A stretch of 64,000 nucleotides of DNA from Amphiscolops sp. MND2022 (lineage: Eukaryota): NCBI GenBank assembly GCA_964187785.1, contig OZ076409.1, positions 10,976,001 to 11,040,000 of the forward strand. Direction: 5' to 3'. Position 1 is the stretch's first letter. The number at the start of each line of letters is the position of its first letter. Below are positions 1 to 61,794 of the stretch, piece by piece. Under the pieces are notes generated by a model that searched no databases, was not told the origin of the DNA, and was given only the letters and a program-made list of their open reading frames with translations. The position numbers were made by a program, and so were the translations under genes.

Positions 1-3000
1 GATCAACAACAATGGACGAGCTGCCGTCAACACTATTTCCAGAGACGATTCTGTCGAGTTTGAGGTGAACTTCCTTCCTAGTGCAGATTTCTTAAAGTTT
101 TTACATGCTGCATGGAGACATGCAGGCTAATCTTTTACTCCAGTCAGAAAACTTTCGAAGCTCTTGATAAGAATCGTGCAATTTTGTAAACCCTTTGGCA
201 AGATACTTTTCAAGAGCGCCAAGAATATGTAAGATCTTGCAAGATCTTGCCAAGAAGTCATATGAAAAACTGACAAAAACTAACAAAAACTGACGCCAAC
301 TGCGGTTTGATCAGCAAACCATTTATGTCACAGCTATCGGCGCTACCAACCAAGCTATCACGATCTGAAATTCAATACTTTGTGTTGTCATATAGCTAAA
401 ATATCAAAGATTGATAGTGCAGCTGGTAGTGCGAACAATAGCCAAGTACTTGTGAACAAAATTGTTGTTTGTTTTACAACTTATTCATTTTCTTGACACT
501 CTTGATACGACTCTTACCAAGATTCCTATCAAGAATATCTAGAGGTTTGTGTGAAGCAAGAATAAACAAGATCTGATGAAGGCTTTCAAGAGTAAATGGG
601 AATATGTACGAATATGCGAGATCGTGGCAAAAATTTCAAGATATTTTGCACTGGGATGGTATGCGTCGAAAACAAAACCGGTCCTAAAGTAACTGTCGAA
701 TAATAATTGAGTGCAAACTCGTCAAATAATTACAGATTACCCACAGGGATTAGTCAGTGCTAACTATGAAATAATTTTCCTTAATTGATGCGTGAAATTT
801 TCAGGTTTGCGCAAAATTTCGCTTTTTTAGTTATGTAATTGCTTGCAATGTTTCATTTCTATAGTTTACAGTGTAATAATTCACTTTTAAAAAGTTTTGA
901 TAATAGTACGATCACAAAGTTAACACTACATCCGCCAGAGAACTTTCGACGAGTTGCTTTTCGAAGAGTTGTTTCCGACGAGTTGTTTTCGACGAGCTGT
1001 TTTCGACGAGCTGTTTTCCACGAGTTTTCCTAGATTCATCCTTTACAAAACTCAGGGAAAATTCAGGGAGAAACACTTCGTAGGTTACAAGACGCCCGCT
1101 AAGCACCGGGATATTTTCCGCTAACAGAATAGTCAAGTAATTAAAATAGTCAAGTAATTCTAGTGTTACTGGTCAAGTAAGGTGAAACTGGGAGGAGATT
1201 TGGCTGAATTTGGAAAAAAAACGCAAAACAGATAATGATTTTCCTCCCCATTTATGTGGGCGGAAAATAACAATGCATCATCCACAGTCCAAGCAGTTTC
1301 AACGTTTCAACCAGGGTTTCATTGTCAGAATTCAAAAAAGTCCAAAGGAGACTCCATTTGAACCCATCGAGAGGTATCGATGGACCCATTGCAGTGTTTT
1401 CCGATGGCTATCTATTGGATTTCAATTATCGCCAAGCGCGTTATGACCCCCTGGGAAGCATTTTGGGTCTACTTTTTCTGACCTGAATCTGCTTATCTAG
1501 CGTGAATGAGCTTTTTCGGGCCTAAACGTTACTCATCTTAATGTTTTGTCTCCAATATTGTCCTTTTTTTGTTTACCTCTCTGCAAAATAGTCTGCAAAG
1601 TAGCTTCAAAATCGTGGAATACCCAAGAATAAAGTTCATCGTCAGGGTATGTAGATTGCCATGCTAGGAAGTTACAGAGTATATTCGAACTGATCAGCAA
1701 CGGCTAATTCATGTGTTCAGGTCCTGTCGCAGGCTGCCGCCTGTGACGGAACTAGAATTTCAACAACAGCTGTTGGCCAAGATGTGGCTCCTGGGACCCT
1801 ACCTATTTATTAAAAGTAAACTGAAACTTTTCTTTAAACTTTTTCATTGTTTATGTATCTTGTTGCCTTGTTATTTTAAAAACTACCCGAAAGGGCCGTA
1901 CTGGGACATATTCCCTATTACCGAACCAAAAATGTGCTTGTTATTTATTTACAGACAACCTTAGTTTTGAATGTTAATTGTATATTAGTCCGTTAACATA
2001 GATTGTGTTGTGCTGTTGTTTTGTAAATGCAATGAAGTATTAATCGGAGATAATAGCAATCAACTTAGAGAAAGTACGGAAACGTGTTCAAATGGTCCTC
2101 TGTACTTTCTTGCTAGCGTCACTTGCGCTCACTCTATTAGCCAATCAGATGCCTTCATTTTGTACGCTTTATTCTCTTTTGCCGATTATGGCCTTTGTAC
2201 AATCTGGACGAGTGTGCTACTAATGCCGTTCAGGCAGACGGTCTAATCCGGCTATTTAGTCTACAATGAACATAGCACTTGTATTTAATGCTAATTCCAT
2301 GTAGTAATATTTTTTTAGTAGTAGGCTTTGTTGATCATGAAGTACCAATTTGAAGTGCTATTTAATGCTTTGTTGTGTTATTAACAAATAATTGCCCGAT
2401 TTTGCTCTAGTACAACCCTGTTGCATGAAATTTGATGTTATTGCCTTAACAGGCCTTTTGCCATTGTACCCATGAAAGGTATTTAGACTAAACATATTTG
2501 TTGTGCTGCCATGTGCTAAAGTATGTGCACTTACATCAACAAATACCTGTTCAATGAAAATATTTTGCCAAATATGTAAACGATGCTAACGGTTGAATGA
2601 TTGTTCCTTTGATGTATAATATTTGGAATGGATAGCGTTCATCCCGTGACCATCAGGAATGCAGTCATATGATATTGTCTTAGTCAAAGAATGTAAAGAA
2701 TGAGAGTGTCACTCTTTCGGGGGTTTAAATACCCGTGCCTTTGAGAGAGGAGACACTTCTTAATTTGCTCTCTTCTGAAAAGACTATCATATTAGTACAA
2801 ACGGTTTCACTGTTATTTTCGAGATATAATCTAATTCAATTTTATACTCGAAGTTTTCCTTATGCCTACTACGAGAAAACAAAAGAAGGCTAGAAAGTCC
2901 AGAGGACTAGAGATCCTTTCTGATATTGAAAATCTAGATATAATGTTAGGAGGCGATCGTTACAATGGAACTGAAAGAGAAAGGAGTTTAGACAGTAACT

Positions 3001-6000
3001 CCGTTAGAAGGAGAGAAAGTATCATGAGTAATAACTTAGACAACGAGGACGAAAGCCTGTTTTCAAATTGTAGAAATGATGAACCTAGGACAAGTGCCGA
3101 TCTTGGTCAAAACTCAGCTGAAGCAAACTCACTAGCTTAGATAAACAGGTTGTCAAGCGAATTAAACTCTAGGATATCCCGTGAGATGGATGAAATGATG
3201 AATAATGTTGGTACACAGATCCAGAGGGCCATCAATGAGGCTATTAACAGTCAAGTATTGCCTCAAATACAGAATGTCATAATGGCCGGATCAGGTCGAG
3301 AGACCAGAAGGGGATGGGAAGTCCCAGTTGAGAGATCGGAAGCAAATGCCGAGGAACAGCGGATTCAAAACGCCAAGGCTGACTGTAGAAATGAACAACA
3401 TGATGGATACCGTTCAGGTGGACCATCTACCCGTCATGTTCATGACATGGTGACAGGAGACAACGAATCTCCACTTCAAGTTCCCGAGTTTCTCACGGGA
3501 CGAGTCTCATCCAGAAACCATCTCGACAGGTCCTATGAGGATATTAACCTTGACACGACGATCCCAGCGCAAGAGAGAAATGCTCCGGCTGATCTAACTG
3601 ACCCTATTACTCGACTGGCAGATGTCTTGACAACGATGCAGAATAGGCCGACAGCCCAACAGCTCACTATACGCCCAGTCAATTCAAACACAATGACTTT
3701 TGATGGCAAGAGTGAAAAATTCGAGCTGTTTGAGGACCTGTTCCACACGATGATCAAGATGCAACCGGAAATGACGGAACAGATGAAAATAAATCACTTC
3801 CACTCACTGCTGAGGAAGAATGCTCTCCAAACCTTCCGGAACATCAGCTCGAGCAATAGACAGACTTTAGAGGACGTATTGGTAATATTCAGACGAAAAT
3901 ACGTCAAACCCGAATCACAGGCGACTGCCAAACATAAATGGAACCGTCTAGTCTGTGATCCCAACACGATGAAACTGCCAGATTTCCTTGAAGAATTAAA
4001 TCAAGGGGCAGAAAAAGCATTCGGGGATCACGCGCAGAAAATGATTGACAGTTTGCTCTACGCAAAACTGCCACCAAAACTGAAGCGGTCTGTAAACATG
4101 GCCAGACTCGAAAACGGCTCTTATGACGAAATAGTTGCTCATTTAGAGAGAGAGTTAGAACTAAATGCCCTTGAGGAATCAGACGACCTACCAATGGCCA
4201 CAATGACCTCCTCGACAACAAAATCCAAGACTCCTCTAACTACTGGGCAAATATCTGATATCACTTGCAACTATTGCAAGGAGAAGGGCCATATGGTCAA
4301 AGACTGTGAAAAATTGAAGAAGAAAAAGGAAAAAGATGCCCAACAAGGCAAACAGACTCAGAAAAAGACGTATCCGGAGTGTGGCACATGTGGTAAAAAG
4401 AACCACCCGGAGGAAAGATGTTGGCAAGGTGCTGGTGCTCATCTTAAACCCAAACGCACCAGACCAGAAGACGCTAATGACGGTAAACCCAATTCAAAGG
4501 CGCAGAAACCACAAAACAGGTCAACATCTTCCAACTCACAGGCCTCATCTTCCAATGATGAGTCAAAAAACTAACTTCGCCACGACTCCAATACAACGAA
4601 CTGATATCCGTCCGACAATACATCAGGTCGGATCCTCCAACGAAAAATTTTCATCAATATACACAACAATTGATGGGCTATCCCTCTGTTGTCTGGCAGC
4701 AACAGATGGACAAAGCAAAAACCATCACACATAACAACACACATTTGTTCCAAAAACCAATTCCTGTTTGGGACCCTGATTATACTACTACCTTCACTAC
4801 CCGATTCAGGCCCATTCCCCTGGTTGACAATTACAACCCTACCTACATAGATCCAGACTACGGCAGAGACCCCTATTGGGACACAGAAATCTACAACCAG
4901 GAACAACTACAATTCCAATATGTCTTAGACGATATCGAACACTATAATAGAACGGTCCACGAGAACCCTCCAATCACCCACAATAAAAAGACCAGAGCAC
5001 TAGTTGAAAACTGGCAAATGAATGATGGCACCAACCATCCAGTGTTCCCAAACCCATTGGGGACCGAGACCCATGAAGACGTTGCTCAACCCATACCACA
5101 ATCACTATTAGACGAGAAGCAATTCCAGAATGTCTTAATCACCAGGGACGGTGAACCAAACTGTGTACCATTGTCAACCAACATCAACCTCAAATGCAAA
5201 AAACGCATGTTGTACTTCCCCATGGACTTTGGGGAGTTGACCATAGATGGACTTATCGACACTGGAGCGCTGTCCAGTGCAATTCCTGAGATGGACCTCC
5301 GGAAAATTCGACTCCTATCTCCACAATCTGTTATCCGGGAAGGTCCGCCTCCAAATTTCCAAATCATGGTTGCTAATGGGCAATTGGAAACTCCTAAGAG
5401 TACCATAGAGCTCAAATTTGAAGTTGGTGACATTGAGTTTCATGAGATTTTTATAGTCATGGAACACCTGACAGGTCCGATTATCGGCCTAATGTTCCTT
5501 CAACGAAACCAAACAGTTCTGGACATGAGACAAGGAATACTGAATTTCCCGTTCTTCTCAATGCAGCTCAAAACAGCTGACCATAAATACTCAAATGTAT
5601 TAGAACCAATTCTCAATCCCATTGAGATAACAATTCCGCCAAATGATAGAGTCCTAATTAGGACCAATTCCCTACTGTACCCTGAGAATGCTGTCACTGG
5701 AATTTTGCAACCGAGCGACCTTCTACATGAATAAGGCGACATCACATTTTGCCCAGCTTTGGTCACTCTGAATGATGGCAACATATTGATACCAGTGAAC
5801 AACTTCACAGACCACCCCTATAAACTCAAAAAGGGACTTCATATTGCCAATTTCTCTGTTATGACGCCAGAACAAATGAAGTATCTCAAACCGGTAGACC
5901 CGGCATCAACCTGGCATCTTTTACAAAATGACCAAGAGCAGGCAGCCCACTATGTCAGCAGTCTCATCAAAACTAATAGAAATCCACAAAACTCCGAAAA

Positions 6001-9000
6001 ATACTGGTTCCCGACTCCAGAAAATCCTGGAAACCCTGAGGAACATACGCCCATACAAAAACGAATCCTCCAAGAATTACAGGCCTTACAGGTCCTGGAG
6101 ACACTTGACCCTACTAAAGATGACGAATCACGTGCAAAATTCCTAGAAAACTTTGACTGGAAGGATTCCACCCTTACTCCTGAAGAGAAGGAGAAAATTG
6201 AGGAATTGTTAGTGGAATTCCATGACAACTTTGCACGACACCGATTCGATATAGGCATGAACGAGGAATTCAAGGTGAAACTGACGCCTAAGGACGATTC
6301 CCCAGCCTATAGTCAAAGCCTCCCAGCTCCTATCAATTTGAAGGAGGACATCCTAGTCGAATTAGCCATGTTACACAAAGATGGCATAATAACTACACTG
6401 CCATTTTCGAAATACGCAAGTCCAATATTCGCACAAAAGAAACCGAATGGGAAACTCCGACTCTTGGTTGACTTGAGAAAAATCAACAACCTCATCTCGG
6501 ATGATTACATCAACAATAATCACCCCGTCAGTACACTAGTTGATGCTGCCCAACACTTGGCAGGCAAAAAACTGTTCTGTAAATTAGACTGCTCGCAGGC
6601 ATACCACTGCCTACCAATGTCTGACCAACGTTCAATCGAAATGTTGGCTTTCAATTTTGCCAGTCGCACATTCGCTTACAGACGATTGGCACAAGGCCTT
6701 AGTCGGTCACTATCCGCATTCTCGAGTTTTATGAGAGAATACCTTGACAAAGTAATTAAAGCGGATCAGTGTGCCCAGTATGTGGACGATATCGGCATCG
6801 CAGCCAATGATGTTGACCACCTCATGACGAACCTGAGAGCTACATTCAAATGCATTCAGGAAGCAGGCCTTAAGTTAACAATGCACAAATGTCATTTCGG
6901 TGCAAAACAAAATTGATTTCCTCGGACGGACTATTACCCCACAAGGCGTCAAACCCCAGAAACAGAACGTGCAAAACTTTCTGGAAAAGACCAAATTCCC
7001 GAAGTCGAAAAAGGCTTTACAACGATATTTGGGATTCCTAAACTACTACAGGAATTATGTCCCAAGACTCTCCGAACGCCTTGCTCCATTCTACAAGATG
7101 CTCAAACGAAAAGGTCCTAGTATCGAAAGAATTAGTCCAACAATTCGAAGAAATCAATAGAGCACTAGACAAATGTTGCGACCTGGCCCTACAACAACCC
7201 ATCCCGAACAAACAAATAGCACTAATGACGGACGCAAGTTTCGGTGCAGCTGGATACGCAGTATTAATAGAAGACGATCCGAACCAGAAATTTACTTCTC
7301 TTCGAAAATCCTATGCACCGGTGGCATATGGTTCAAAAACCTTCACCCCAGCTCAAATCAAGATGTCATTATATGCCAAGGAGATTTTGGCAATTTACTT
7401 TGCATTCAAAGAATTTGGGCATATATTCTGGGGTGCGCCCAAACCGGTCATAATCCTTACTGACAATAAGGCTGTAACAAGATTTTTCCAGACGCAAATT
7501 ATACCCCCAACACTCTGGAATGCGTGTGATTATGTGATACAGTTTAATTTTGTCATAGCGCATATCCCGGGGGCACAAAATACAGCCGCAGATTATCTGT
7601 CCCGATTGGAGGCAGACCCGAAGGACAAATTGGTCATGAAAATTCGGGAAGATGTGCAAACCTTACCAATAGAAATCAATGTCCAATCCTCAGGAGTATC
7701 CCAAGAGGAACAAATATTCTACACAAACGATGACGATGAGACAGAGGAACAGTACTGGGCAAGAAAAGAAGCAATCAGGACAAATCCAGTGATCGAATTG
7801 CCCACTGTCACAATACAAACTCTGTCTACAAATCTGGTAAAACAACAACCAGATATCCAAGTCCGTCTAAGGAAAACGAACCAGATCATTATCGAGCAGT
7901 CCAAAGATGCAGTATTGCAGCAGCTGAAGGCAAAGCTCCTTCATGAAGATTACTCAGAGAACATACTGCACCAGGACGTCCGATACAGACATTATGCAAA
8001 CAATATGGAACGACTTGCCCTAAAAGACGAAATCCTGACAAGGCAATATTTTGATGAGACAGGGAATGTGAAATACCATCAGATTTTACTCCCGCAACAC
8101 TTATTTATTCCGGGAATTGCTTCAATCCCTTCACGGGACAGCGCATAAACACCCCGGAATTTCAAAAATGCTGCAGGAAATCAGACAGAGATATTACTAC
8201 CCTAGCATGGCTAAACACGTCAAAAAGTGGGTAGAAGGGTGTGAACAATGTGCCACAGACAAGAGAGTCCCTAATGCAACGATCACACCTGAACTGCTCA
8301 ATTTGCCCGGATGGGACCTTGGACCTGAAGACGCCATGCAGATTGACTCACTGCCGAATCTTCCCCCAAGTGGAGGATACGAAAACGTCCTAACGGCAAT
8401 CGATGTATTTTCTAGATATTTGTTTGCTTACCCTCTTACGGACGCATCAGCGATCAATGTAGCAAAAGCGCTCATTGATATCATGACAAAACATGCGTAC
8501 TTGCCAACAACGCTTATCACTGATAAAGGTACCGCATTTACTTCCACAATTATCGCGGAGGTTACGCAAATTTTGGGAATTACACTCAAATGTGCGACGA
8601 CGAAACACCCGCAAACAATTGGGAAATTGGAGCGGACCCATGCCTCATTAAAGACAAATCTCAAAGTGGCATGTGGGGAATACCGCCGACAATGGCATAA
8701 ATACTTGCCATTAGCAGTACTGAATCATAATACAAGTTACCATGCCAGCATCAGCTGTGAACCAACGAGAGTATTCCATGGCCGAATTCCCTACAATATC
8801 CTAGATCATAAGCTTGGAAATAATCCAAACGAAAAGATCAGCCCTACAACCGAATTTGCTGAAGAAATCCAGAACAGGACGAAAACCCTAATAGACAAAA
8901 CGAAGCAAAATATTATGCAGTCATATATCAAATACAAGGAATATTATGACCGCAAAGCGAAAGCTGCTCCATTGAAGGAGAATGAATTCTGTTTTGTCTT

Positions 9001-12000
9001 ACAGCCGAAAGCGGACCATCAAGGATCGAAAATCCCATTCCGCGATTATCGTTGGGTTGGTCCATTCATAGTGCAAAAAGTCTTACCAAATGAGAATTAC
9101 ATTGTACGACGGCTTAATACAAACAAAACTCAAACATTGCATCGAATTCGCCTTAAAAAATTTGTCCCCAATCAACCGCTTGAGGACAATTTCCGAGAGC
9201 AACGCTTGCAGCCAGACGAAGAAATTGTTATTCCGCAGGACTTATACATCATAACGTGGGAAACCGACTTTGGCGAGCAGCTAACTACGCGAGACAACGA
9301 AGCTATTCCGACTAGCTTACCGAATGGCGAACAGCCGAGTACGGCACAAATTAACAATGACGCAAACGAGAGCGACGCGGATTATATAATCACGCGAGAA
9401 ACGAATAAAGACAATACGGCACACAGCCGGAATGACCGCTTAAGTGACAACGTCACAACGAGAAATGAAAATAATGATGCAAATAGAAATAAAGAATCTG
9501 ATTGGCCGAATCCGGCCGCTAGCCCAAACACTCAAGAAAAATCTTTACCGAGTACAGCAAATGCACCGGAAAATCATGAAATTTTGTCAGAAAGAAATTC
9601 GCTGAATGAAACGATGCACAATATTCTCCAAATAGGGGGGATGATATTATCGTGCCCGAAATATCTGAAAACGATGCTAGAAATGAAAGCCTGAGCCCTA
9701 GAGGAGGAAAATATAACCTCAGGCCTAACCCCAACCCGAACTACTCAGAAGACTATAGATACTAGAGAAAATTAAATTCGATTCAGGAAACTAGCCCTGA
9801 ATTGTTTTGCCTTTTTTCTCTTTTTATCTTTTATCTTTTAGTCCCAAGGCGAATCTTTTGAATAAATAATTGGGACAGCCAACAAAACCCCTTCAGAAGA
9901 ATAAATACGGGGCAAAAAAAAACAGAAATGAAAATTCAACAAAAGAAATAAACAAAGTTTACAGTTTGAGAGTACATATATACATATGTACATTTAGTTT
10001 TTAGAACTGCTAGCTGAAGATTCGTCGGCAACAGACGAAGCCCTAGAACGCGAAATGGCCCTCTCTATTCGTCTTCGCTTGCTATCACTGGGAAGTTTTA
10101 CTGCAGAGGCATCAGGGATAGATGAGGTATCTGCTATAGTGGGGCTACGAAATTGAAACTCTGACCCAGAAAGGATAGAACGGTAAGAAGTGACAAGGGT
10201 CTTGTAAATAGCAGTCCGGCCGAAACCGTCTACAAAAGGCCAAGGGTCATAATCGGCGGCGAAAGCGGATTGCCCGAAAGAAGAAGACAGCTGCTGGAAC
10301 TTCTCAAGTTGGGGCTCAGTGCAGCAGGCTAGCAGGGAATCAGGATCTGAAGTCAAATAACGTTGGCAGGGTAAGATCACGTCTACCAAACGGGACTGAA
10401 GCCCTGTTGTATCGATTCTCCCAAAGGAAACTGGGGGATATTCAGGATTGATAGTAGTTATGCAAAGACAGCTAAACTTAAACAAATAGCAAAGATGATC
10501 ATGGGACTGAAGGAATTCCAAATTCATGAAGAAATCGATGAGATCAGGAGGATCCTTGGCTGAACTAAATTCAGCGGAGTGATTGTTCCGGAGGTGGTCC
10601 AATAGGGCAACATACTCGTCTCGGCAAGCTGACTCGTTGAATTCCGAGACCCAGAAACGCAGCTGGAATGTGGAGTACAGGCAATCAAAATGGCGCAAAG
10701 CAACATCCACTGGTCGTTTGAATAGGATGTATGGGTCGAACGCTGCCAACCCTTTGATAAGTTCGAAACTAAGTTCAGTATGTTGGAGAACCTCCGACAA
10801 CAGGAACTTGATGTAATTCCTGGCGCTTGCTGCGAAATCCAATTTGGCCTGGTCGGCAGTCTTACTAATCGCTGCTTTACTGGACTTCATGTTGAAGTGG
10901 AGTCCAGCTGCTTTCAAGTTGCTTGCTGTAGTAACTTTGCCAGCGATCTTGAGATGCACCAGAAGGTTCTCGTCTCCCATGAATGTACCCTGGTTGAGCT
11001 GGAAATTCATCAATAAGAACCAGGCGTTCTCTAGTGGCACTGTATCCGGCTGGAAGATGCGGAAGCAAAGGCGGTTGATGTATTTGCACACTCCGCCACA
11101 GAGGAAGAAGGAGGCATCACGTCTCTGACTCAAATTGGTGACGAAGCTGGTGACATCTGAAATTCACAAATCAATGGTCCTTAAAAGGACAACAGACCAA
11201 AGGGATCTTAGTAGATTGAGAATACTCACAATCGCTGACCAAACGTTGAAAAAGCTCCAATTTGGCAGCAAAGAAGTTGTCCATGATGAGGGACCATTCG
11301 AAGCTCTGGACCTAGGAAAGAAGCAGTGTGAACACCTTGAGACTTACCCATCAACGATAATGCAAGGAAAGCAATTACTACGATTCCTTATGTAAAGAAA
11401 ATGCCACTTGAAGTTCATAACCTTATTGTGCACTCCTTGATTCTCTTGGCGAGATGAATGGGCTGTAAGATAGCGGAGGATTGTTTTCCACTTCTTCGAC
11501 AAGGTTCGGCAGAGTTCAGGAATTTTCTCCACTTCTAGTCTGCAGGTCGTGATTGCCTAAACAAAGTAATCCTCAGGATTGGAATTTCAACTGAAGTTGC
11601 TTACCACCCCCTACCAGTGTAATGTAAAAAACTAGACTCACTCGGACAAGTTCAGGTGACTCTGAAACCCAGTCTTCAGATAGGCATCCTCCGAGTGAGA
11701 CTAAGAGACTTTGGAGAACGGAAAACATGTCTATGTGCCCAAACACACTGTAGTTCCCCTTGTGCATCAAGGTACGCAAGTTGAGCAGTTCGAAGCGGAA
11801 GCAACTTTGAACCCCTCGCGGATAGGCTGGGTGATGGTCCACCGTCCTGATCAGGTCGACAGCGCAACCTGAGATCGCAACTATGTCAGGAGCAGTCGAT
11901 ACGACGGATAACAGTCGAGATAGGGAGCCCAGTTCCTCGGTGAGTCCAGCGCCGGTGAGGCCACTTCTGCAGATGAATAGGCGGCAGAGTTTCGCTCCTT

Positions 12001-15000
12001 TCCAGAACCGCAGGGACATAAAGCGATTAGCCCCTCTCTTCTCAAACTCAACTCCGAAATGCTGGGAGGCGCAGACCTGTTCAGCTATGTCCTCCATCAG
12101 GCAATTGAAGACGTGTTGGAAGATGGCCTGAAACGGAACAAAATTGGATGAATAACATGACGTCACTTTCCTGACCCTTCCCTACCACCTAGTTCAACTT
12201 TTTGGAAAACAACTGAGAGATCTTACCATGATGTGGTCCTCATTCCAATTGAAGTCCTGGAAAGCTGACTGAAACTCAGTGTAACTTCCAACTCTCGCCC
12301 ACAGTTTTCGAAGCAGTGCCAAATCTCCAGAACTTTGGATGAAGTCTCCCAAAAGACATATCTGTGTTCGTAACCGGGACTGTGGAGTGATGGGAGCGGA
12401 AGTGTGGCCTTGCAGATAATCCTCGTAGAATGGATTTCTTTCTCCAACGTCAACGAGCTCCGTGTGTATGAACCTGGGTAACTCATCAGCGAGTTCCTTC
12501 TTACTAAGAATTTTGCCATTCTTCCCCCTGACGCGATGCTGAACTTTCCCAGTCACAAGATCCACTGTTTTGAGGTGTTCATACCTCCACCTCTGGTCTC
12601 GGCGTAAATGTTTTTCGGTCCTGTGATGGCGCAGGATTTCAACGGTGCCCTTGGTTTTTATACTAAAATTCTTTTTACACATGTGGCACCATACCATGTG
12701 TGGATTGTGGAGGGGATCAGAGGGCCCAGAGATAAAAGATCTCGTCCACCCGATTTTGGAAAGAAACTCCTCCCTCATGGGTACGCCTCGTCTGGAAACC
12801 TTTTTCACTTTGGCTGATTTAGCAGTTGTGGTACTTTTTCGGGACCTCTGGGTAGGCGTCCTATTCTGGATCTCAGAGAGGGTAATGTCGAGGCTACCCT
12901 TTTCACCTGTCTCAGCTCCCTCCTCAGAAGAATCTTTTGGCTGCGCTGGCTGGGGCGTTTGAGGAGAACCCCTGGGATCTGAGAGTCTGGTTGATGAGAG
13001 CCATTTCAGTAGAACTGTCACTCTCGTTGGGATCAAGGAAATCACTGACGTTCTGGAGCAGACTCATGTCAGTTTGTGACTCATATCCTGACCCGAATTC
13101 AGTCAAAGTTCCTTCAGAACCGGATCTAGCAGGTAAATTGGGACCAGGAGTGGACGAGCGGGCCCGGATCTGAAACTTTTCTGTCCTCGAGGGGGCTGTT
13201 GCGGGTGTTCCTCTGACAGCTCCAATTACCATCCTTTCCATGGTCGAACAAGTCATGTTGATGGCCTCATCGGTTAAAACCCGGAGCAAGTGGTAAACTT
13301 GTGGCTCAGTAAATGCGACGACTCTTTGTCCGACCGGGAAGGTGTAAGGGTCCTCGGTCTCGAAGTACTGCTTCAAGGTGGCTCGACTTCGCCCTGACAA
13401 ATCTCGCAAGGTGTCGTTTTGACCTGATTGGCCAGATCTAGATGTGCCAGGTTGGCCCGGATCGTGAACTTCTGAGCCTGATTCACCTCCAGTTTCTGAT
13501 TGCTGTGTAGAGTCAAAAGGGTTCATAGCATATAATGGGGGGCACTCAGCTTGACTGATGTTTTCTGATGTTTGATTGGCATCACTGAACTCACCAATAT
13601 CTTCAACTTGGTCTTTCCTCCCAGGAAGTGGAGGAGGTTCTATGATAGAAGAGGAGGCATCCCCTTCAGACTGTAAGAATGGGACTTCAGACATCCCTTG
13701 TGTCTGATCTTGGAGGACTTGCAACTCGAGAAACCCTGTGCTCATCATCGGCGCCACTGAAAGCGAGGATTCAAGTTGGGTGAGACTATCTACTGAAGTC
13801 CCTGGCTGATTTGGTGGATTAGGTGTGCCAGATCGTACAAATTCAGCACCCTGGACTGCAATTTGGACTAATTGGCCTTGGGCCGTAATAGGACCCTCTT
13901 CAACGTTACTAGCAGAATCGGCTTCAGTAAGTCCTTGTATGGTCTCCATCCTCTGGGACTCCTGATTTGCATAGGCGGTGACATCGGCATTGCTCTCATT
14001 GTGGAAGGAAGAGTCTACAGTCATATGCTCGGTTTGTCCACGGGCAGCCCTGATTGGAGGGAAAGGAGGCGGTGAAGGATTAACTCCAGGAACATATCCA
14101 GACGTGAAAATGGGGACTGGGCGTTGAATAGCCCCGGCAGAATTGTCAGTTGTGTTGGTGGTTTGAACTTGAGGTTCATCAGGATTCTGGTTATCTAAAC
14201 AGAAAGAGATGAAATTTGGCGGTAAGCTTCCTTGAAAGAAATCCATTACGCCGCATTAGAAAACTTCCGGAAGTGTTTTGAAAATTTGAATGAAACGGTT
14301 TATCACGTGTTCATTAGTAGATACAGGAAGCGTTTTGTGAACAAATTCGACCTTGATCAAGTTGAACTAGTTCAAACTAGGAGAAAATCAAACCAACCTG
14401 TATTAGAAGACATTCTGTTGAAACGGCCCACTTGGATACAGTTCCGATTCGGACGTTGTTGAAAAGGGGGAATTAGAAGTGCTCGGGGATGAAGCAAGGG
14501 GAAAGAATCTGCGATGAAGCAGGACGTGGTCCGATGCAGGCACCGAGACGAAATTGACGATGAAGATGAAGATGAAGATTAAATTGCAAATGAAAGGATA
14601 AACGGAACAATAATTGGAATTAAATCAGGAATTGAATGAGTAAAAGAATTACTAAAAGTTGGAGTTCGTGGCTGAAGATTATTACCAGACTAATATTATG
14701 GGATTATCTACATATTTATTCTGTACATGGAGTCTGCCAGCGAAGTGTACAAAAACTTTGTTATTTACAGCTTACTTAGTTAGTGGCCTATTCCGGCCGT
14801 TTGACCAGTTGCACTTTATCGTTTCGTTCAGTTATCTTAGTTATTCTTAGTTAGAAAATCCGCCATTTTGAATTATTTTGATTTGTTATTTTCGCCATTT
14901 TTTTATTTAATTTTTCAATTATCAGAGCTTAACTCTGATTGGCTGAAGCCATGTTGGAAGTATTTAGCGACGCGTGCTGTTAATTGTTCTGAAGCAAGCC

Positions 15001-18000
15001 GTTAATTACCTACTAGAGGTGAAGATATTTGATATCAACAACTTAAGTGCTGCTTACACCTACTTTGATGATGGCTTTGATGAAGGACAAACATCAAACC
15101 AATCGGAGCCGCCAACCCCGTTTAGGAATTCCATTCAGAAAAGTTTACGATGAATCGGGGCAATCAACCTAAGATTCTCCCGCTAAATTGGAAACTTCGG
15201 GAAAAGTCCTAACTCGGAATTTGGGGAGGTGATAAGCTCATTCTGATTTCAAACCCGCTCACGACAAGTTGACTAGAAAACCTTCAAAATTGCAAAAAAA
15301 CTGATAATGGAGAAATTCAACAAAGCGAGAAAGCTCTTTGGTTCTCTTGACTTTAGCTCGGACTCATCAAATAACTCTGTAATCTATATCAGTAGCGACG
15401 AAGAAACATCCGAAGGATGGGACTCAGATTGGTCAACGGACACAGAGGAGCTGGTGAGGAGAGTTGAAACTCAAGTCCAAGCCCGGCCAATACCCATAGC
15501 AGGAAGAAAACTAACTATGGCAAGTGATGAGCCTGGCCCCAGTACTGTGCCGCCCAACATGCAGACCACGCCAAAGCTAGACAAGAAATACTTTGATGAG
15601 AAACTTTGCTATGCTCCAACTAGAGGCAACACAAAAAGGAGGATAGAACTGTGCAAGACGATTCTGCCAGTTCTAGAGTCTCCACTATCTCCCCCTGCCC
15701 ATGAGAGGGGGCCGTCAATGCACACGCCGCTATTACAGCCTGAAAACAGTGGATTTCACGCCTCTTTCCATATTCAGAATGCGCTTCCTTACACGGACAT
15801 CAGTACCCAGAGGTGTACGAGTTGCATGGTCTGTGGAAAGTCAGTAGACGAAATAAAGGCAATAAAAGTGACTCGCTATATGGAAGCTTCAACGCCTAGA
15901 AGCGAACCGGCGTACATAACAGCTCTCAGAAAGGAGGCTTACATCAACGGCCTCAATGCTGGCAGTCTTCTTTTCATCGCACCCGCTGTGTCGCAGGCTG
16001 CCGCCAGTGACGGAACTAGAATTTCAACAACAGCTGTTGGCCAAGATGTGGCTCCTGGGACCCTACCCATTTATTAAAAGTAAACTGAAACTTTTCTTTA
16101 AACTTTTTCATTGTTTATGTATCTTGTTGCCTTGTTATTTTAAAAACTACCCGAAAGGGCCGTACTGGGACATATTCCCTATTACCGAACCAAAAATGTG
16201 CTTGTTATTTATTTACAGACAACCTTAGTTTTGAATGTTAATTGTATATTAGTCCGTTAACATAGATTGTGTTGTGCTGTTGTTTTGTAAATGCAATAAA
16301 GTATTAATCGGAGATAATAGCAATCAACTTAGAGAAAGTACGGAAACGTGTTCAAATGGTCCTCTGTACTTTCTTGCTAGCGTCACTTGCGCTCACTCTA
16401 TTAGCCAATCAGATGCCTTCATTTTGTACGCTTTATTCTCTTTTACCGATTATGGCCTTTGTACAATCTGGACGAGTGTGCTACTAATGCCGTTCAGGCA
16501 GACGGTCTGATCCGGCTATTTAGTCTACAATGAACATAGCACTTGTATTTAATGGTAATTCCATGTAGTAATATTTATTTAGTAGTAGGCTTTGTTGATC
16601 ATGAAGTACCAATTTGAAGTGCTATTTAATGCTTTGTTGTGTTATTAACAAATAATTGCCCGATTTTGCTCTAGTACAACCCTGTTGCATGAAATTTGAT
16701 GTTTTTGCCTTAACAGGCCTTTTGCCATTGTACCCATGAAAGGTATTTAGACTAAACATATTTGTTGTGCTGCCATGTGCTAAAGTATGTGCACTTACAT
16801 CAACAAATACCTGTTCAATGAAAATATTTTGCCAAATATGTAAACGATGCTAACGGTTGAATGATTGTTCCTTTGATGTATAATATTTGGAATGGATAGC
16901 GTTCATCCCGTGCCCATCAGGAATGCAGTCATATGATATTGTCTTAGTCAAAGAATGTAAAGAATGAGAGTGTCACTCTTTCGGGGGTATATATACCCGT
17001 GCCTTTGAGAGAGGAGACACTTCTTAATTTGCTCTCTTCTGAAAAGACTATCATATTAGTACAAACGGTTTCACTGTTATTTTCGAGATATAATCTAATT
17101 CAATTTTATACTCGAAGTTTTCCTTATGCCTACTACGAGAAAACAAAAGAAGGCTAGAAAGTCCAGAGGACTAGAGATCCTTTCTGATATTGAAAATCTA
17201 GATATAATGTTAGGAGGCGATCGTTACAATGGAACTGAAAGAGAAAGGAGTTTAGACAGTAACTCCGTTAGAAGGAGAGAAAGTATCATGAGTAATAACT
17301 TAGACAACGAGGACGAAAGCCTGTTTTCAAATTGTAGAAATGATGAACCTAGGACAAGTGCCGATCTTGGTCAAAACTCAGCTGAAGCAAACTCACTAGC
17401 TGAGATAAACAGGTTGTCAAGCGAATTAAACTCTAGGATATCCCGTGAGATGGATGAAATGATGAATAATGTTGGTACACAGATCCAGAGGGCCATCAAT
17501 GAGGCTATTAACAGTCAAGTATTGCCTCAAATACAGAATGTCATAATGGCCGGATCAGGTCGAGAGACCAGAAGGGGATGGGAAGTCCCAGTTGAGAGAT
17601 CGGAAGCAAATGCCGAGGAACAGCGGATCCAAAACGCTAAAGCCGACTGTAGAAATGAACAACATGATGGATACCGTTCAGGTGGACCATCTACCCGTCA
17701 TGTTCATGACAGGTCCTATTCATTATTCCAGCCAATATTGATCTTATTCTATTTTCAAACTAAACCAGTTGGAACGATTTTTCTTCTTCAAATTCTTGAA
17801 ATCCATCGATGGGCTATCGATGGCTATCGCTGGGAATTTTGACCTTTAATGCCCATCGATGCTCTCCTATATTTTAATTTCATTATTGATGGTTCGAACC
17901 ATCAATAATGAAATCGAAACATCGAGAGCATCGATGGGCATTTGAGGTCGATGGGATTTCGATTGAAAAATGATATCAAAACCCTCAATTCGTTTGAGAA

Positions 18001-21000
18001 TTTCGAGATTTTGTATGAAAAACCCCATATTGATACTTGCGTTTTTGATCTGAAACAATCGTTATCATAAAACTTTTGTGAATGACATGTCGAATTTGAG
18101 ACATGAAATGTTTGTTTCAGTTCATCAGTCTACACCGGACAGAGTACCTGAGTTTCAACGTGACCTTCGTGTTCACAGAGGGCCACAGCTACTTCAAGGT
18201 AGCCCGGATTTACTTCACTTCCCTCCCCATGGAGTACTTCTATTCCCAATTCGGAAGAGATTCAGACGATGCCCGGGACGTCTCTCTTTACTCTCCAAAA
18301 ATCAGGACCGAACTCATTCAACTATACGTGCCCGGTAATTTACCTTTCCGGACCATATGTCTCACCCCCCCCCCCTCAAGTACACCTTGCTTCGAATTAA
18401 CTGCCACACCCCCAACACAAAAGCACATTTTGTTTTTTGATAAAAATATTTCACTAATAGGAGATTATATTAATGTAAATACTTGGAGAAGTGTCTTTGC
18501 AGCTATTTTGACACTTCCAGCAAAAAATAACCCTGTTTATTCAATACTATTGTCCAAAATAGCAAAAATTCACGCTTGGAACAAGCTAAAATCGTATAAA
18601 AAAGTCCCCATTTCAACGCAAATTTTCTCCGCGATAAAATCGAATGACCAACTTTTAACTGGCAGTCAATTTTTAAAAAGGATTATGTCGACATTAATTA
18701 TTTATTTATTGAACCAAAATTTTTACGCAAATGATGTCGACATAATGGAATTTGAACCTTGTGTCTTACTTCCCCACGCAACCGCTTGGGGGGATTGGGA
18801 ATAAGACACACGGTCAATCTTTCCTTCCTCAATTCTTGATGGTGTGCAAAGTTTCATTTGCAAGGAGGGTTTCGACATTGTTAATTGTTTTCGGTAATCT
18901 CGGTAATCCGCTAACTTTCAAATCGCTATTTCGCTGAAAAAGCATTTTCTAACCATTAAATGTTTGACTTCAAGTATATTTTAAAATTGAATGTTATCTC
19001 AAATTGGTTTTTGCAAGAATAAAAGAGTGCGTTTTTCAAGAGTGAAAATAGAAATTTTGCGGAAATCATTTTCAAACTCTGTTTATACTGAAAAAAAGTT
19101 TTAAAAATTGAAATTGGACATTCTATTGGTTGCTGCTAATTTGATTAGCTGATGAAATCGCTGAAAATTCCTGCGCGCCCGCTAATTCGCTAAATCGCTA
19201 TTTAGCGGCGTCAAAACTCTGTTCGGAAAACTTAATTTTAACTGAATAAGATTTCATAAACACGTGGATTTATTGTTCATCGATTACAAACTTCAAATAG
19301 AAACATTGGAATCTAAGTTTTTTGGGTCGGATTTTCACACTTTTTTGTTAGGATTTTTACAAAAGCTTGTTTCTTTACGAATTGATTTCAGATAACGAAA
19401 TCTGGTGGAAATATCCAAGCTCCTAAACTTTGAAACTGTTGTAGCACCATACTTTTCAACAATTAATAATTAGGAATTGATCCAAAGGTACAATCATCTA
19501 GAATTCAAAATGCCCAATACAATCATTTGAAAATACGCCGCGGGGGAAATAAGACACAAGGTTCAAAAACTATTATGTCGACATCGTTTGCCTTGAAATT
19601 TTGGTCCGATAAAATAATTGATGTCGACATAATCCTATCTTTTACATTGACTGCCAGTTAAAAATTCCTCATTAGCTTTTATCGCTTTTATCGAGAAAAT
19701 TTGCGTTGAAATAAGTGCCTTTTCATACTACTTTAGCTTGTTCCAAGTGTGAATTTTTGCTATTTTCCACTATAATATCAAAAATTAGGGTTGTTTTTTT
19801 GCTAGAAGTGTCAAAACAACTGTAAAGACAATCTGCTAAGTATTTACGTTCTCCTAATAGTGAAATACTTTTATTGAAGAACAAAATGTGTTTTCTTGTT
19901 GGGGGATTCGAAGCAAAGTTTACCTGGGGGTAAATAAGTAAATAAGGCATATGGTCCAATATATCTGCCAAAATTTCATCGAGAAGGAAGTTTTATGAAC
20001 TGTCCACGTGTTTGCCCAGTGTAAAAAATCTTGAAATTCTTGGCAAGGATCTTGCAAATTCCTGAAACCCGTGGTAAGAATCTTGGCAAGATTCTTGTAC
20101 GATCTTGCAAAATCTTGCCAAGAACTTCAAGAAAAATGCCTAATTTTTCGACTCAAAAAACGAAAACGCACAAAAAGCGTTTTGGTACAAGAAATCTTTC
20201 AGGCAAAACCAAGAATTTTGTCAAGAAGTCCAAGAAAATCCAAGAATCTTGCCAAGAAATCTGGGAAAACCCAAGAATAAGCGGGAAGGGCAAGATATTA
20301 TTGGATGATCATGAATGAAAATGCCTGAAAAAGCCTTATTTTGATAAAAGTAATGCTCGTAAGCACCACTAAAATAGAGAATTCGTGAACTGAAATTAGT
20401 ATACTGTATTAGTATGCTACAGTTCCACGTCTAAAAAAGACGATATGTCAATTGGTACCAAACTTTGTTTTCTATTATTACAACGTTATCAATCTGATTG
20501 AACAATTGGCTCCAAAATACTTTTGGAAAGTTTCCCTGATTACATCTTTGATATTTTTCCATATTTCCTCAGGAAAGTTTATTATAAACAAAATTCGTTC
20601 CATACGTTCGCTCCTGGTTGGTGTTTGATGAAATGCATAAATTATCACAGACTTGCTACATACAGTTTTCACCTCCCGGATTTCTTGACAAGAATCTTGC
20701 CAAGATTCTTGTCAAGAATTTCAAGATTTTTTAACGGTCCAAGATAATTCAAGATTTTATCAAGGGTTTCAAGAGGTAACGGGAATTTGTGGGAAAATCC
20801 AAGATCTTGGCAAGAGTTTCAAGATATTTTACACTGGGTAATCATTCGTGTAACTTTTTAAATCAAGCAAGTTGCCATCGCTTTTAGAGTCTTCATGCAG
20901 CAATTTGATTGACATCCACAATCTAACAGTGACCAACCCCTGTCAACTGACTGCTTCTTCCCACAAAGACAAGCTCACATACCCCACAACAGCCAGTAAC

Positions 21001-58479: not shown

Positions 58480-59996
58480 CTAAATAAACAAAAGGTAACA
58501 GTGGCTACGACCGTCGAAGACCATCCCGTACTGAGATTCTATTCAATCCCATCGATGGGCCCATCGCAGCCCATCGATGGTCCATCGATGGCATCACAAC
58601 TTTTTCCGATTACCATCGATGGAGCATCGATGGGCATCGATGGAATTTCAAATGAGGCCCAACGCGTTGTGGCCCATTGGGAGCCTGTTAAAGTTGCAAA
58701 TTTCCAATTTAACCAACTGACATTCCCTTTTCAGGCTCTTTTCTGTTTTCCCCTCCACCACCAAAATGTTTGGAAGTATATTTCCTTAAAAACGTTAGAC
58801 TAGCCTAATTAAAAGTAAAACCTTCTTTCATAATGGTAAGTTAACGTCTATTGGAATAGTGTTTTGCTTGAACAAACTGTTTTGCTTTTTGACTATAGTT
58901 ATAATCGTATCAAGTGTTTATTGATGGAAGCTGTTGATTTCTTCATCAAAAATGCGTGACTGCATATTGAAAAAGTGTGAACAAAATTTGTATCTGAATC
59001 CTAAACTGTCACACTAAGAATGAATGTAAATTTGAAGCTTTCTGGTTTGTATTCAAGTCTTTTTGTTCTACGATTTTCACTAATTTTCCAAAAAAAATTG
59101 GTGGTGGGGGGGTATGAGAAACAGAAAAGAGCCCCTTTTCAGCCTATCTAAGCTTTATCGCGCCTGAAAATCACTCATTTCGATTTTTTTGCTTAAAAAT
59201 TAGTTCTTTTTTATTGGTTGTTGCTCAACTAGTAGCAGTGGTATAGATAGACTGAGGGGTATATACCACTTAGCTACGGATGGTTCATTCGGCCTGTACC
59301 GGGGCGGCATCAGGTTCGAATCTCTCTCACCTCGCCATTGTTTGGCCTTCAGCAAGGCAAGTCCTTCATCCCTAGCTTAGTGGTGTGGTCAGTGACAAAA
59401 AATCACGCATTTGGTGGAGAAAAGCATAAATAAAGAGAACAACGGTGAGCAGTCAGACCTTTGTGACCTTGAGCAAGTCACTTTGAAACCACAGCTTCAA
59501 GCCAACCATTACTTGGCCATTTGGCCGCAAATATGGTGCTATCTGCTATGGAGAGATAGTATCCGAAAAGGCACCAACTCAGAAAAGCAGATATACTTTA
59601 TTGGGAGTTCGCCCTGTGATATTGGGGAAATTAATTTCCTTTCTTCATTTTGCATGTTTTTCAACCATAATCTTGCGGTAACTTTGTATGAAAGCTTCAA
59701 TAATGGTAACACATGGTTTTAGTGAGGTTCTCAAAAATCGAAGTAACGTTAAGGGGACATCTGTCCTTGATATTTGTTCTGTTTTTGAATGATGATCAAA
59801 TCGGCAGAAATTCGAATCGAATTATCAACAAACTTCAGGAGAATACAGATCATTTACATTCAAAAAATTTTGTATGATTTATATTCTTCTGCCTAATTGT
59901 TGTGATAAACTTATTAAATAGAAATATTTGATAAGTTTATCACGTGTTTTTTTAGAGAATTTGTTCCAATCTGAAGTGTACACGAATACTGGATCC

Positions 59997-60662
59997 ATGG
60001 TATATGTGATAGGTGCAAGCTCTTTGAGGAACGCAGTGAGTGCATTACATTACAAGTCCAAAAAAGAATACGAGAAACGTGTAACAGCTATCTCTGGTCT
60101 CAGTCTCAACCCATTATCGAGTAACCCCCTCAAAAACTTGCAGAATCTCCTACGAAAGGGATCTTTGGCAAAACAACAAAATCTGATAATTTGGCACGAC
60201 ATCATTAATAACTCCCTATCAGTACATTGGAAAACTCGAACGCCGGCCCTCACACCGGAAGAACTTGTCAAATTACTAGTTCACTATCGAGATCGAATCA
60301 GTGCTGTTGTTTATTGTCGCAGATTTGGGACCCCCGATGTTTACAAGGAATTGAAAACAAGTGGTATTCCCATCATAAGTGTAAGAAAAAACTTGGTGTC
60401 AAAACGAAAACAGCGAGACAGTGATTTGCAAATAAAATTATCTGCGGTGCATCAGCAACATCATCTGGAATTGAAATCGCTGAGTATTGTTTTCAAAAAC
60501 AGTCACAATCTGAACGCACTGACGAAGAATAACCACTCGAAAAAGAACCGACCATCTCAGAAGAAGCGGCGAAGGAAACGGAACTTCGGGTTAAAGGTTA
60601 GTTTCATTTGGGCATCTTTTCTTTTGTGGTTGGCCTTCGGAGATTCTTTTCTTGCTGGCTAG
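59997..60662 (+). CDS. LINE ORF0: putative SGNH/GDSL-esterase-like protein with a basic C-terminal stretch
   Basis: MVYVIGASSLRN resembles SGNH block I (GDS); also AISGL, LIIWHDIINN and KKRRRKR. Fold assignment is an inference. Confidence 0.55.
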   Translation: MVYVIGASSLRNAVSALHYKSKKEYEKRVTAISGLSLNPLSSNPLKNLQNLLRKGSLAKQQNLIIWHDIINNSLSVHWKTRTPALTPEELVKLLVHYRDRISAVVYCRRFGTPDVYKELKTSGIPIISVRKNLVSKRKQRDSDLQIKLSAVHQQHHLELKSLSIVFKNSHNLNALTKNNHSKKNRPSQKKRRRKRNFGLKVSFIWASFLLWLAFGDSFLAG

Positions 60663-60684
60663 CTACTTTAGTTGAGTGCCTAAA

Positions 60685-61794
60685 ATGATGTTGCGATCCC
60701 AGAGTCAACCAGTTTCAAGTAAAGCATCGCCGAAAACTTCAATTTCCTCGCAGCAAATGTCGCCAACAAGTAGGGCAAACAGTAGTGTAAACAAAAATAT
60801 CGATGTGACTGAGCTGGCGAACACCCTCCTCCCTTTGTTAAGCCAAGCAATCCAAGAAAGTGTAGCAGCCAACATAAACGCAGAATTCAGAAAAGTTAAC
60901 GACTGTATTACTGAAAACCTTAGTCAAATCAACGAAAAGCTTAATATTATCGGCGCAACACACGAGAGAATCGAAACAGAATTAGCTGGAGTTGTCAACT
61001 CAGTCGCCCTCCTGAGATCCAACCACGAAGAACTTACACAGAAGGTAATTAACCTCGAAGACACACTCGACAAAAACAGTGAAGAAGTTGCAGTAGCCCA
61101 ATCATCCATTACCAGTCTATTGCAAGAACACAAAATTTTGGAACATGATCTGGACAACCTCAAGAAAACCTGTGTTACTCAGACTAATCTGGAAGAACGT
61201 GTGGTCGAGAAAGTATCACAAATGCTACAAACACAGCAACAAAACCATCTTCCATGTACCGTGAATGAATTACCGTTACGTGAGATTAGTTTTGATGTCG
61301 AAACTGAATGTAGACTGGAGGCTATGGAGCAATATAGTAGAAGAGACTGTTTACTGTTCTTTGGACTATACGAAATGGAGTTCGAGGACTGCACTGAGCA
61401 AATAGTCCAAACTGCCCATGCTATGGGGGTCAATATTACTGCTGCCGACGTCTCAATCAGCCACCGCCTACAAATCAGAACCCGCCGAAGAGACGAGCCG
61501 AGGCCAATTTTTGCCAAATTTACTCGCAGAAGTGTAAAAAACGAAGTTTTTGAATCGAAACACCGGCTTAAAGAATCGCTGAATCATTACGATGTCTATG
61601 TACAAGAACAACTGACAAAAGCGAGGTCGAGAGCCATTTACCGTATGAAAGAAGCAGGAATCAGAGTCAGCACTTTTGAGTCCCGACTACTATACACCCA
61701 CGATGGGAAGCATGGAGTGATCAACTCTCTGGCTGAACTTCCCTCGAAAATGGGATGGGATCGTGCCAAAATGAAAGAAATCTTTGCAAAATAG
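60685..61794 (+). CDS. LINE ORF1p (coiled coil plus RRM-like domain)
   Basis: Heptad-rich middle region; EQYSRRDCLLFFGL, ISHRL, PRPIFAKF and VYVQEQLT are typical of L1-like ORF1 RRM/CTD regions. Confidence 0.85.
   Translation: MMLRSQSQPVSSKASPKTSISSQQMSPTSRANSSVNKNIDVTELANTLLPLLSQAIQESVAANINAEFRKVNDCITENLSQINEKLNIIGATHERIETELAGVVNSVALLRSNHEELTQKVINLEDTLDKNSEEVAVAQSSITSLLQEHKILEHDLDNLKKTCVTQTNLEERVVEKVSQMLQTQQQNHLPCTVNELPLREISFDVETECRLEAMEQYSRRDCLLFFGLYEMEFEDCTEQIVQTAHAMGVNITAADVSISHRLQIRTRRRDEPRPIFAKFTRRSVKNEVFESKHRLKESLNHYDVYVQEQLTKARSRAIYRMKEAGIRVSTFESRLLYTHDGKHGVINSLAELPSKMGWDRAKMKEIFAK

Follow-up and report, generated by a model that had tools for sequence, protein, structure and literature searches.

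Several Ty3/Gypsy long terminal repeat (LTR) retrotransposons of plants carry, in addition to gag and pol, an antisense gene of the aORF-3R type, with examples known from Grande of maize (gene23), RIRE2 of rice, PvRetro13, and Silene and other Retand elements, where it is associated with TRP28 (Transposase_28) (PMC7264820, PMC11963269). The main text of these papers proposes a nuclear, regulatory role for the products and presents their function as unproven. A further antisense gene, brtn, is described for the Boty-like Ty3/Gypsy elements of Botrytis cinerea (PMC7264820), and the antisense genes of retroviruses such as human T-cell leukaemia virus (HTLV) are cited for comparison (PMC11963269). 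Here we analyse a stretch of 64,000 nucleotides from the animal Amphiscolops sp. MND2022 (contig OZ076409.1, positions 10,976,001 to 11,040,000, called the window below and numbered from its first base), in which a Ty3/Gypsy element carries a large antisense gene (14246-9994, minus strand) between the end of its integrase frame (9694) and its 3' LTR (15989). The gene has four introns, is held in the same place by all other copies of the element that were retrieved, and is, as the comparison of those copies strongly supports, under purifying selection; its product may descend from a DNA transposase of the hAT superfamily. In the literature that we searched, antisense accessory genes were found only in plants and a fungus, besides the retroviruses, with no case from an animal Ty3/Gypsy element and none tied to hAT or BED proteins. 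One annelid paper mentions such antisense open reading frames (ORFs), in its introduction only.

As far as the main text of PMC7264820 and PMC11963269 describes them, the plant aORF-3R genes resemble the gene studied here in lying antisense to gag-pol between pol and the 3' LTR, in being present in most copies of their family, in the length of the region between pol and 3' LTR (6.3 kb here, 9695-15988) and in a suspected nuclear or DNA-binding regulatory role; the domain found in Retand even bears the name 'transposase'. The present gene differs in its animal host, in the much larger size of its product (1297 aa), which contains neither TRP28 nor another Pfam domain, and in its four spliceosomal introns, introns being unmentioned in the main text of either paper. 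That the host is an animal agrees with 37 matches to the nuclear-receptor domain zf-C4 above Pfam's cut-off in its genome, this domain being restricted to animals. The likeness to HTLV, as far as it is discussed for plant elements, lies in a minus-strand gene for a regulatory protein near the 3' end of a retroelement, whereas the proteins are unrelated and an exogenous vertebrate retrovirus is compared with a Metaviridae-type element. The gene brtn, for which Zhao et al. 2011 (Virology 417:248) is reportedly the source, is likewise an antisense accessory gene of a Ty3/Gypsy family outside plants, that of a fungal host.

The initial annotation had joined seemingly unrelated minus-strand ORFs into a single protein of about 1,300 residues through four short introns. 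The positions of these introns (12226-12128, 11641-11557, 11421-11312 and 11229-11157) prove exact in the window and in the alignment of its copies; all four are GT..AG introns in which a polypyrimidine tract precedes the AG. Exon 1 (12227-14246, with the ATG at 14246-14244) encodes an acidic, low-complexity N-terminus, a conserved block and a zinc finger; among the other 29 copies, 22 have this exon at a length of 2028 nt (676 codons). Exon 1 is followed by intron 1 (12128-12226; 99 nt, GTAAGA...TTTCAG) and by exon 2 (11642-12127; 162 codons), which contains a candidate RNase H-like β1-β3/α1 region (HFGVEFE, RFMSLRFW, LCRLFICRS). Intron 2 (11557-11641) measures 95 nt in most copies and 85 nt in the window, whose copy alone has lost 10 bp here, and leads to exon 3 (11422-11556; 45 codons), which is recognized also in a second repeat family of the same genome. 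Intron 3 (11312-11421; 110 nt, GTTATG...TCCTAG) precedes the short exon 4 (11230-11311; 27 codons and 1 nt, VQSFEWSLIMDNFFAAKLELFQRLVSD), a 27-codon exon that had been foreseen at this place, and intron 4 (11157-11229; 73 nt, GTGAGT...TTTCAG) separates it from exon 5 (9994-11156; 2 nt, 386 codons and the stop), which encodes an all-α domain and then a basic, serine-rich tail. In the window itself the single protein is not encoded: the minus-strand ORFs 14255-12924 and 13063-12194 occupy different frames because of an 8-bp deletion near 12981 in exon 1, seen in this copy alone among 30, and the spliced frame ends after 440 codons. The gene copy of the window is dead through this frameshift, and it is in 10 of the 29 other copies that removal of the introns yields the predicted protein as one frame of 1297 aa.

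These copies are, together with the window, the 30 best of 35 that were scored among 2128 first-look candidates in the 1.07-Gb genome, and are 92-98% identical. Besides the ten with the full-length frame, one (L029) has an open frame of 1270 aa owing to an in-frame 81-bp deletion, which brings those keeping an open spliced frame to 11 of 29, while the remaining 18 contain stops or frameshifts. Of 120 intron copies, 119 retain the GT-AG dinucleotides. Averaged over all pairs of the 30 copies, diversity amounts to 0.029, 0.023 and 0.072 at the first, second and third codon positions and 0.046 in the introns. The ratio of nonsynonymous to synonymous substitution rates (dN/dS, by the Nei-Gojobori method) lies between 0.125 and 0.153 when intact copies are compared in the 21 pairings whose dS exceeds 0.1; the full set of 45 intact pairs has a median of 0.21 and a range up to 1.85, a width that arises because near-identical pairs are noisy. 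The structured parts (finger segment, exons 2-4 and exon 5) show dN/dS values of 0.06-0.11, against 0.22-0.28 for the first 450 residues. The open frame, the splice sites, the distribution of diversity over codon positions and the dN/dS values are far beyond chance, and conserved splice sites together with a dN/dS below 1, which had been named as a check on the gene, are both found. An origin of the gene model as a set of chance ORFs is rejected by the open spliced frames, the conserved GT-AG sites, the distribution of diversity over codon positions and the dN/dS values.

The third-position diversity of the antisense gene (0.072) is about half of that found over 8500-15750 in the same copies for the integrase (0.135) and for a sense ORF that follows the gene (0.151); additional constraint on DNA or RNA, or recombination between copies, could account for this low value.

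The genomic context of the gene is as constant as its frame. From integrase through antisense gene to sense ORF, each of the 29 other copies runs co-linearly with the window, a context of 7.25 kb over which they are 90-98% identical to it; in 27 of them a single alignment spans at least 7.27 kb, and in the other two (L022 and L029) the retained single high-scoring segment pair is shorter. As in plant aORF-3R families, the gene is therefore a component of the element in every copy that was fetched. The gene is not bracketed by convincing terminal inverted repeats (TIRs) or by an 8-bp target-site duplication, as expected for a hAT transposon, the best bridging pair being 15 nt long and 87% identical, with unlike flanks. 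The genomic RNA of the element is the complement of the antisense introns, which are consequently not spliced from it and are copied at each retrotransposition; it is for this reason that introns can persist in a gene carried by a retrotransposon.

The gene belongs to a family that extends well beyond these copies. At E<=1e-3, exon 5 of an intact copy (L002) finds matches in 438 representative proteins, and at E<=1e-30 in 94; conservation of the protein reaches down to 25-40% identity across the 438. None of the best 150 of these relatives exceeds 418 aa, all being single-exon ORF calls, and no longer protein containing exon 5 was found, which is weak evidence. With exon 2, 135 proteins match at E<=1e-3, and 35 of them were aligned. 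Those of the exon-2 ORFs that reach the borders begin with ...PFQ|AIFQH and end with ...PEL.R|V.. (usually VS), down to 48% identity, and the relatives diverge completely outside both points, so these borders read as the translated splice acceptor and donor. Some relatives show the exons joined in other ways: in P0008 and P0080 exon 4 is contiguous with exon 5, intron 4 being absent; in P0045 exon 3 is contiguous with exon 4, intron 3 being absent, and an in-frame intron 4 is then read through; and P0252 (844 aa) consists of exon 1, an in-frame intron 1 of 25 residues and exon 2. Within the same genome a second, young repeat family, represented by six loci (L049-L054) with a mutual identity of 97-99.9% across 4.1 kb, is 39% identical to the family of the window in exon 5 and 49% in exon 2. 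It keeps exons 2, 4 and 5 in six of six loci and exon 3 in five of six, with the same exon-2 borders and an intron 4 of about 490 bp, and no integrase match lies within 1.5 kb downstream of its exon 5. An alignment search with seven rows found no relatives among metagenome contigs. With 2128 and 7533 first-look candidates, the gene family is carried by the retrotransposon in thousands of copies. The initial view of an accessory antisense gene maintained together with its introns is strongly supported by the shared context in 29 of 29 copies, by purifying selection, by exon borders conserved at 39-49% identity and by the lack of TIRs and target-site duplication around the gene.

The protein can be divided into four parts. 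The acidic N-terminus of about 450 residues, which the initial annotation had noted, has in the intact copy L002 an isoelectric point (pI) of 4.13 and a content of S, T, P, G, Q and N of 50% (residues 1-450). Residues 451-676 form a basic segment (pI 9.9) containing the finger WCHMC-x16-HHRTEKH, which had likewise been recognized at the outset and lies at 12608-12688 on the minus strand; its pattern, C-x2-C-x16-H(H)-x5-H, has BED-like spacing, and the motif GWTRSF stands 20 residues upstream. The signature of BED fingers comprises ligands of the form Cx2C...Hx3-5H, a ββα fold and an upstream aromatic motif. There follows a structured remainder, and finally an all-α portion formed by the last 330 residues and followed by a basic tail, the final 56 residues containing 27% serine and a KRRR motif. 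An AlphaFold2 model of exon 5, built on an alignment of 35 rows, is all-α with a mean predicted local distance difference test (pLDDT) score of 76.7; blocks of ten residues between 11 and 190 average 85-97, and the score is above 90 for most of residues 10-230. A second model, of the finger and exon 2 of P0252 including the read-through intron, has low confidence (mean pLDDT 47); it predicts a ββα finger and, after a long helix, three strands and a helix over the segments CFGLEFE, RFMSVRFW and LSRVIICRS. Among relatives, E27 of exon 2 is nearly invariant and E29 invariant.

In hAT transposases a BED finger is followed by an RNase H-like core, which contains a DDE triad and is interrupted by an all-α insertion domain, and by a C-terminal dimerisation domain; the initial annotation had read the protein as a disarmed transposase of this type. 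The order of a finger, a β-meander and a long helical part, as modelled, would fit a hAT protein. In the ESM Atlas, 22 of the 30 nearest hits of exon 5 fall in clusters bearing Dimer_Tnp_hAT (score 0.93), a domain carried in two of these clusters by 60% and 53% of members, and other look-alikes belong to FAM200/GTF2IRD2-like clusters. For the finger with exon 2 the look-alikes are clusters of DUF659, of DUF4371/FAM200-ZBED5_RNase-like and of ZBED1_RNase-like with zf-BED (scores 0.78-0.83), those bearing BED scoring 0.79-0.80. It is the agreement between the two halves, each of which points weakly in these language-model comparisons to the matching half of the hAT superfamily, that carries the weight of the Atlas result. 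The all-α model of exon 5 shows in addition a weak structural match to the Hermes hAT transposase (PDB 8edg chain A), whose co-linear alignment is much longer than any other obtained, and the spacing of VEFE, IVA(C/I)SG and SCFRFxxLNL in exon 2 appears by eye to resemble that of SDxWT, TDNAxN and CxAHxLxL in hAT proteins of the same genome. In comparison with the alignment of these control hAT proteins exon 2 lacks the acidic residue of the second motif, and no conserved D-D-E was identified in the antisense protein. The proposal that HFGVEFE and IVAISGC occupy the places of the catalytic Asp motifs finds agreement in the three-strand meander and helix predicted there, but depends on the model of pLDDT 47. 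Genuine hAT genes are abundant in the genome, with 150 scored Dimer_Tnp_hAT matches out of 2215 candidates and several open frames of 597-697 aa, so donors of a hAT-like gene would be plentiful in the host.

A number of results weigh against this descent. No Pfam family matches any exon of L002 at E<=1, and none, hAT and zf-BED included, is matched by any of the 30 and 35 members of the gene family that were scanned. In exon 5, Dimer_Tnp_hAT (PF05699) is detected neither in L002 at E<=1 nor in any of 35 homologues at E<=0.5, and zf-BED (PF02892) is found neither in exon 1 of L002 nor in 14 exon-1 sequences (13 full and the P0252 fragment); among five full-length hAT ORFs of the same genome used as controls, Dimer_Tnp_hAT is found in five, DUF659 in three and zf-BED in two. 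Comparison by hhalign of the exon-2 and exon-5 alignments with 5 and 12 hAT ORFs of the genome gave probabilities of 0.1-0.2%, the profiles being shallow (numbers of effective sequences, Neff, of 2.0-4.2, and 3.1 for the hAT profile). Profile searches of the PDB returned Taq polymerase (E 0.36) and RESC4 (E 0.54), which we take as chance, and a Foldseek comparison with known structures, which had been suggested as a check, did not lend support, its best match in the PDB for the exon-5 model having an E of 0.77. The Atlas leads are themselves weak by the marks of the tool, with a recognition of 2037, under 2300, and with scores of 0.78-0.83 that count as 'a lead only', and the confidence of the finger and exon 2 model is as low as stated above. 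These data neither prove nor disprove that the protein is a disarmed hAT transposase bearing a BED finger: the look-alikes relate each half to the matching half of hAT proteins, but Pfam, hhalign, PDB profiles and Foldseek do not. We consider hAT descent slightly more likely than not.

The closest competitor assigns the gene the same accessory role and derives its product from elsewhere, as a family of its own in which a single C2H2-type finger is combined with a new α/β and helical domain, having arisen in the retrotransposon lineage or been captured by it long ago. We give this explanation substantial weight, though less than an even chance. Against it speak the language-model look-alikes, in which two separate regions of the protein are related to the corresponding halves of hAT/ZBED proteins, the position of Hermes as by far the longest co-linear structural alignment, and the order of finger, β-meander and long helical part, which fits hAT. 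The nearest analogues under hAT descent would be the host-domesticated hAT proteins ZBED1/4/5, GTF2IRD2 and FAM200, for which the comparison suggests a common plan of BED-like finger, RNase H-like part and helical C-terminus with catalytic acids apparently lost, and perhaps a common use as DNA-binding factor, not nuclease. These are single-copy host genes that match Pfam, whereas the antisense protein is without a Pfam match and borne by a retrotransposon; from Hermes it differs in lacking sequence similarity, a recognizable DDE triad and TIRs.

Our preferred explanation, which we hold to be slightly more probable than not, is that of a fixed antisense accessory gene whose protein derives from a hAT transposase without its catalytic carboxylates and serves the element as a nuclear, sequence-specific DNA-binding factor. 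The protein would most likely descend from a hAT-type DNA transposase through loss of the catalytic carboxylates, and would most likely act in the nucleus on specific DNA sequences; its DNA binding, its nuclear location and its role in the life cycle of the element are what we infer from these comparisons. The mechanism that we favour is that of a transactivator or regulator which would bind the LTR or leader of its own element, the acidic N-terminus serving as activation domain; alternatively the protein might be a tether guiding integration. The fuller scenario, in which a retrotransposon lineage captured a hAT enzyme with BED finger, dead RNase H-like core and helical C-terminus and kept it as an intron-bearing antisense gene for a DNA-binding transactivator or tether, is offered tentatively, since we regard it as somewhat improbable in all its parts.

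Much less probable is a view in which the antisense transcript itself matters, by pairing with genomic RNA and contributing to control of the element through small RNAs, while the ORF is incidental. Regulation by antisense RNA is indeed discussed for aORFs-3R in the main text of PMC7264820, yet here third positions are about three times more variable than first and second positions, dN/dS is 0.13-0.15, the splice sites are conserved, and the protein remains recognizable across the 438 representatives at 25-40% identity, so that we consider this view very unlikely. A nested DNA transposon or a recently transduced host gene, accidental to this copy, would agree with the GC content of 0.47-0.49 at 10-14 kb against 0.41-0.44 in the remaining element, but is refuted, and left with next to no probability, by the co-linear context of 7.25 kb in 29 of 29 other copies at 90-98% identity, by the lack of TIRs or an 8-bp duplication (the best pair, of 15 nt and 87%, having unlike flanks), which the initial annotation had expected of such an insertion in this copy only, and by selection on the gene within the family.

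The functions of antisense accessory genes in LTR retrotransposons are obscure, and a large, strongly selected example with four introns offers a good system for their study. Hundreds of diverged relatives are present in public assemblies, none of them named or annotated among the searches made, and gene finders or annotators of transposable elements that ignore spliced antisense genes will miss such proteins. It seems that the element supplies itself with a DNA-binding helper. If the link to hAT holds, retrotransposons would be able to recruit the DNA-binding modules of DNA transposases, and some of the unannotated 'ORFans' in the genomes of invertebrates would be explained; if an enzyme was indeed captured, this would be a transposon enzyme domesticated by another transposon and not by the host, in thousands of copies and many subfamilies.

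Conserved non-coding sequence flanks the gene on both sides. The most conserved non-coding block (14250-14399, minus strand) lies just upstream of the antisense ATG, with a diversity of 0.013-0.024 in 50-bp bins against 0.04-0.09 further upstream, and is a candidate 5' untranslated region (UTR) or regulatory region. A second block (9850-9899; diversity 0.013) is located about 100-140 bp beyond the antisense stop and contains on the plus strand an AATAAA about 200 bp past the integrase stop; both blocks may represent UTRs or processing signals. On the minus strand at 14870-14950, some 650 bp before the antisense ATG, visual inspection shows a CCAAT-box-like CAGCCAATCAG and, twice, AAAATGGCG, which makes this stretch a candidate internal promoter of the antisense gene.

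The element that carries the gene has a total length of 15,990 bp and is a Ty3/Gypsy LTR retrotransposon of Metaviridae type. Its assignment as an LTR retrotransposon is made because the 5' LTR (1725-3451, plus strand; 1727 bp, TG...CA) is repeated directly as the 3' LTR (15989-17714, plus strand; likewise beginning with TG and ending with CA) at 99.0% identity, with the 5-bp target-site duplication GGTCC on both sides (1720-1724 and 17715-17719). The order of protease, reverse transcriptase, RNase H and integrase along 4562-9694, as given by Pfam, is that of Ty3/Gypsy pol. In the window copy the gag-pol region (3141-9694) is divided into five ORFs on the plus strand: gag with a zinc knuckle (3141-4574; ORF and domain match), protease (4562-5734; gag-asp_proteas, 7.6e-6), reverse transcriptase (5735-6916; RVT_1, 9.7e-21), RNase H (7042-8148; RT_RNaseH, 8.8e-16) and integrase (8072-9694; Integrase_H2C2, 2.5e-15, and rve, 9.1e-11). 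The gag frame begins within the LTR, the 3' LTR copy being open from 17099 (MPTTRKQKK...) and running on into the residues found from 3141 in the 5' copy (regions 2835-3451 and 17099-17842), and a TGG after the 5' LTR, a candidate primer-binding site, falls inside the gag frame.

Between the antisense gene and the 3' LTR lies the additional sense ORF mentioned above (15277-16077, plus strand; 266 aa), which overlaps the LTR by 89 bp. Its diversity among copies over 15277-15750 is 0.052, 0.031 and 0.151 at the three codon positions, and it too is under purifying selection; no Pfam match to it is better than E 0.24. An Rfam scan of the 64-kb window gave no match, and a search for tandem repeats as possible arrays of binding sites found four tiny arrays within the element and one just outside the 3' LTR. 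In the distant flanks of the element a 156-nt direct repeat of 76-77% identity (500-655 and 20683-20838) is probably an older dispersed repeat, and a plus-strand run of four long ORFs (246, 372, 320 and 313 aa) at 59922-63958 of the window is likely to belong to another retroelement.

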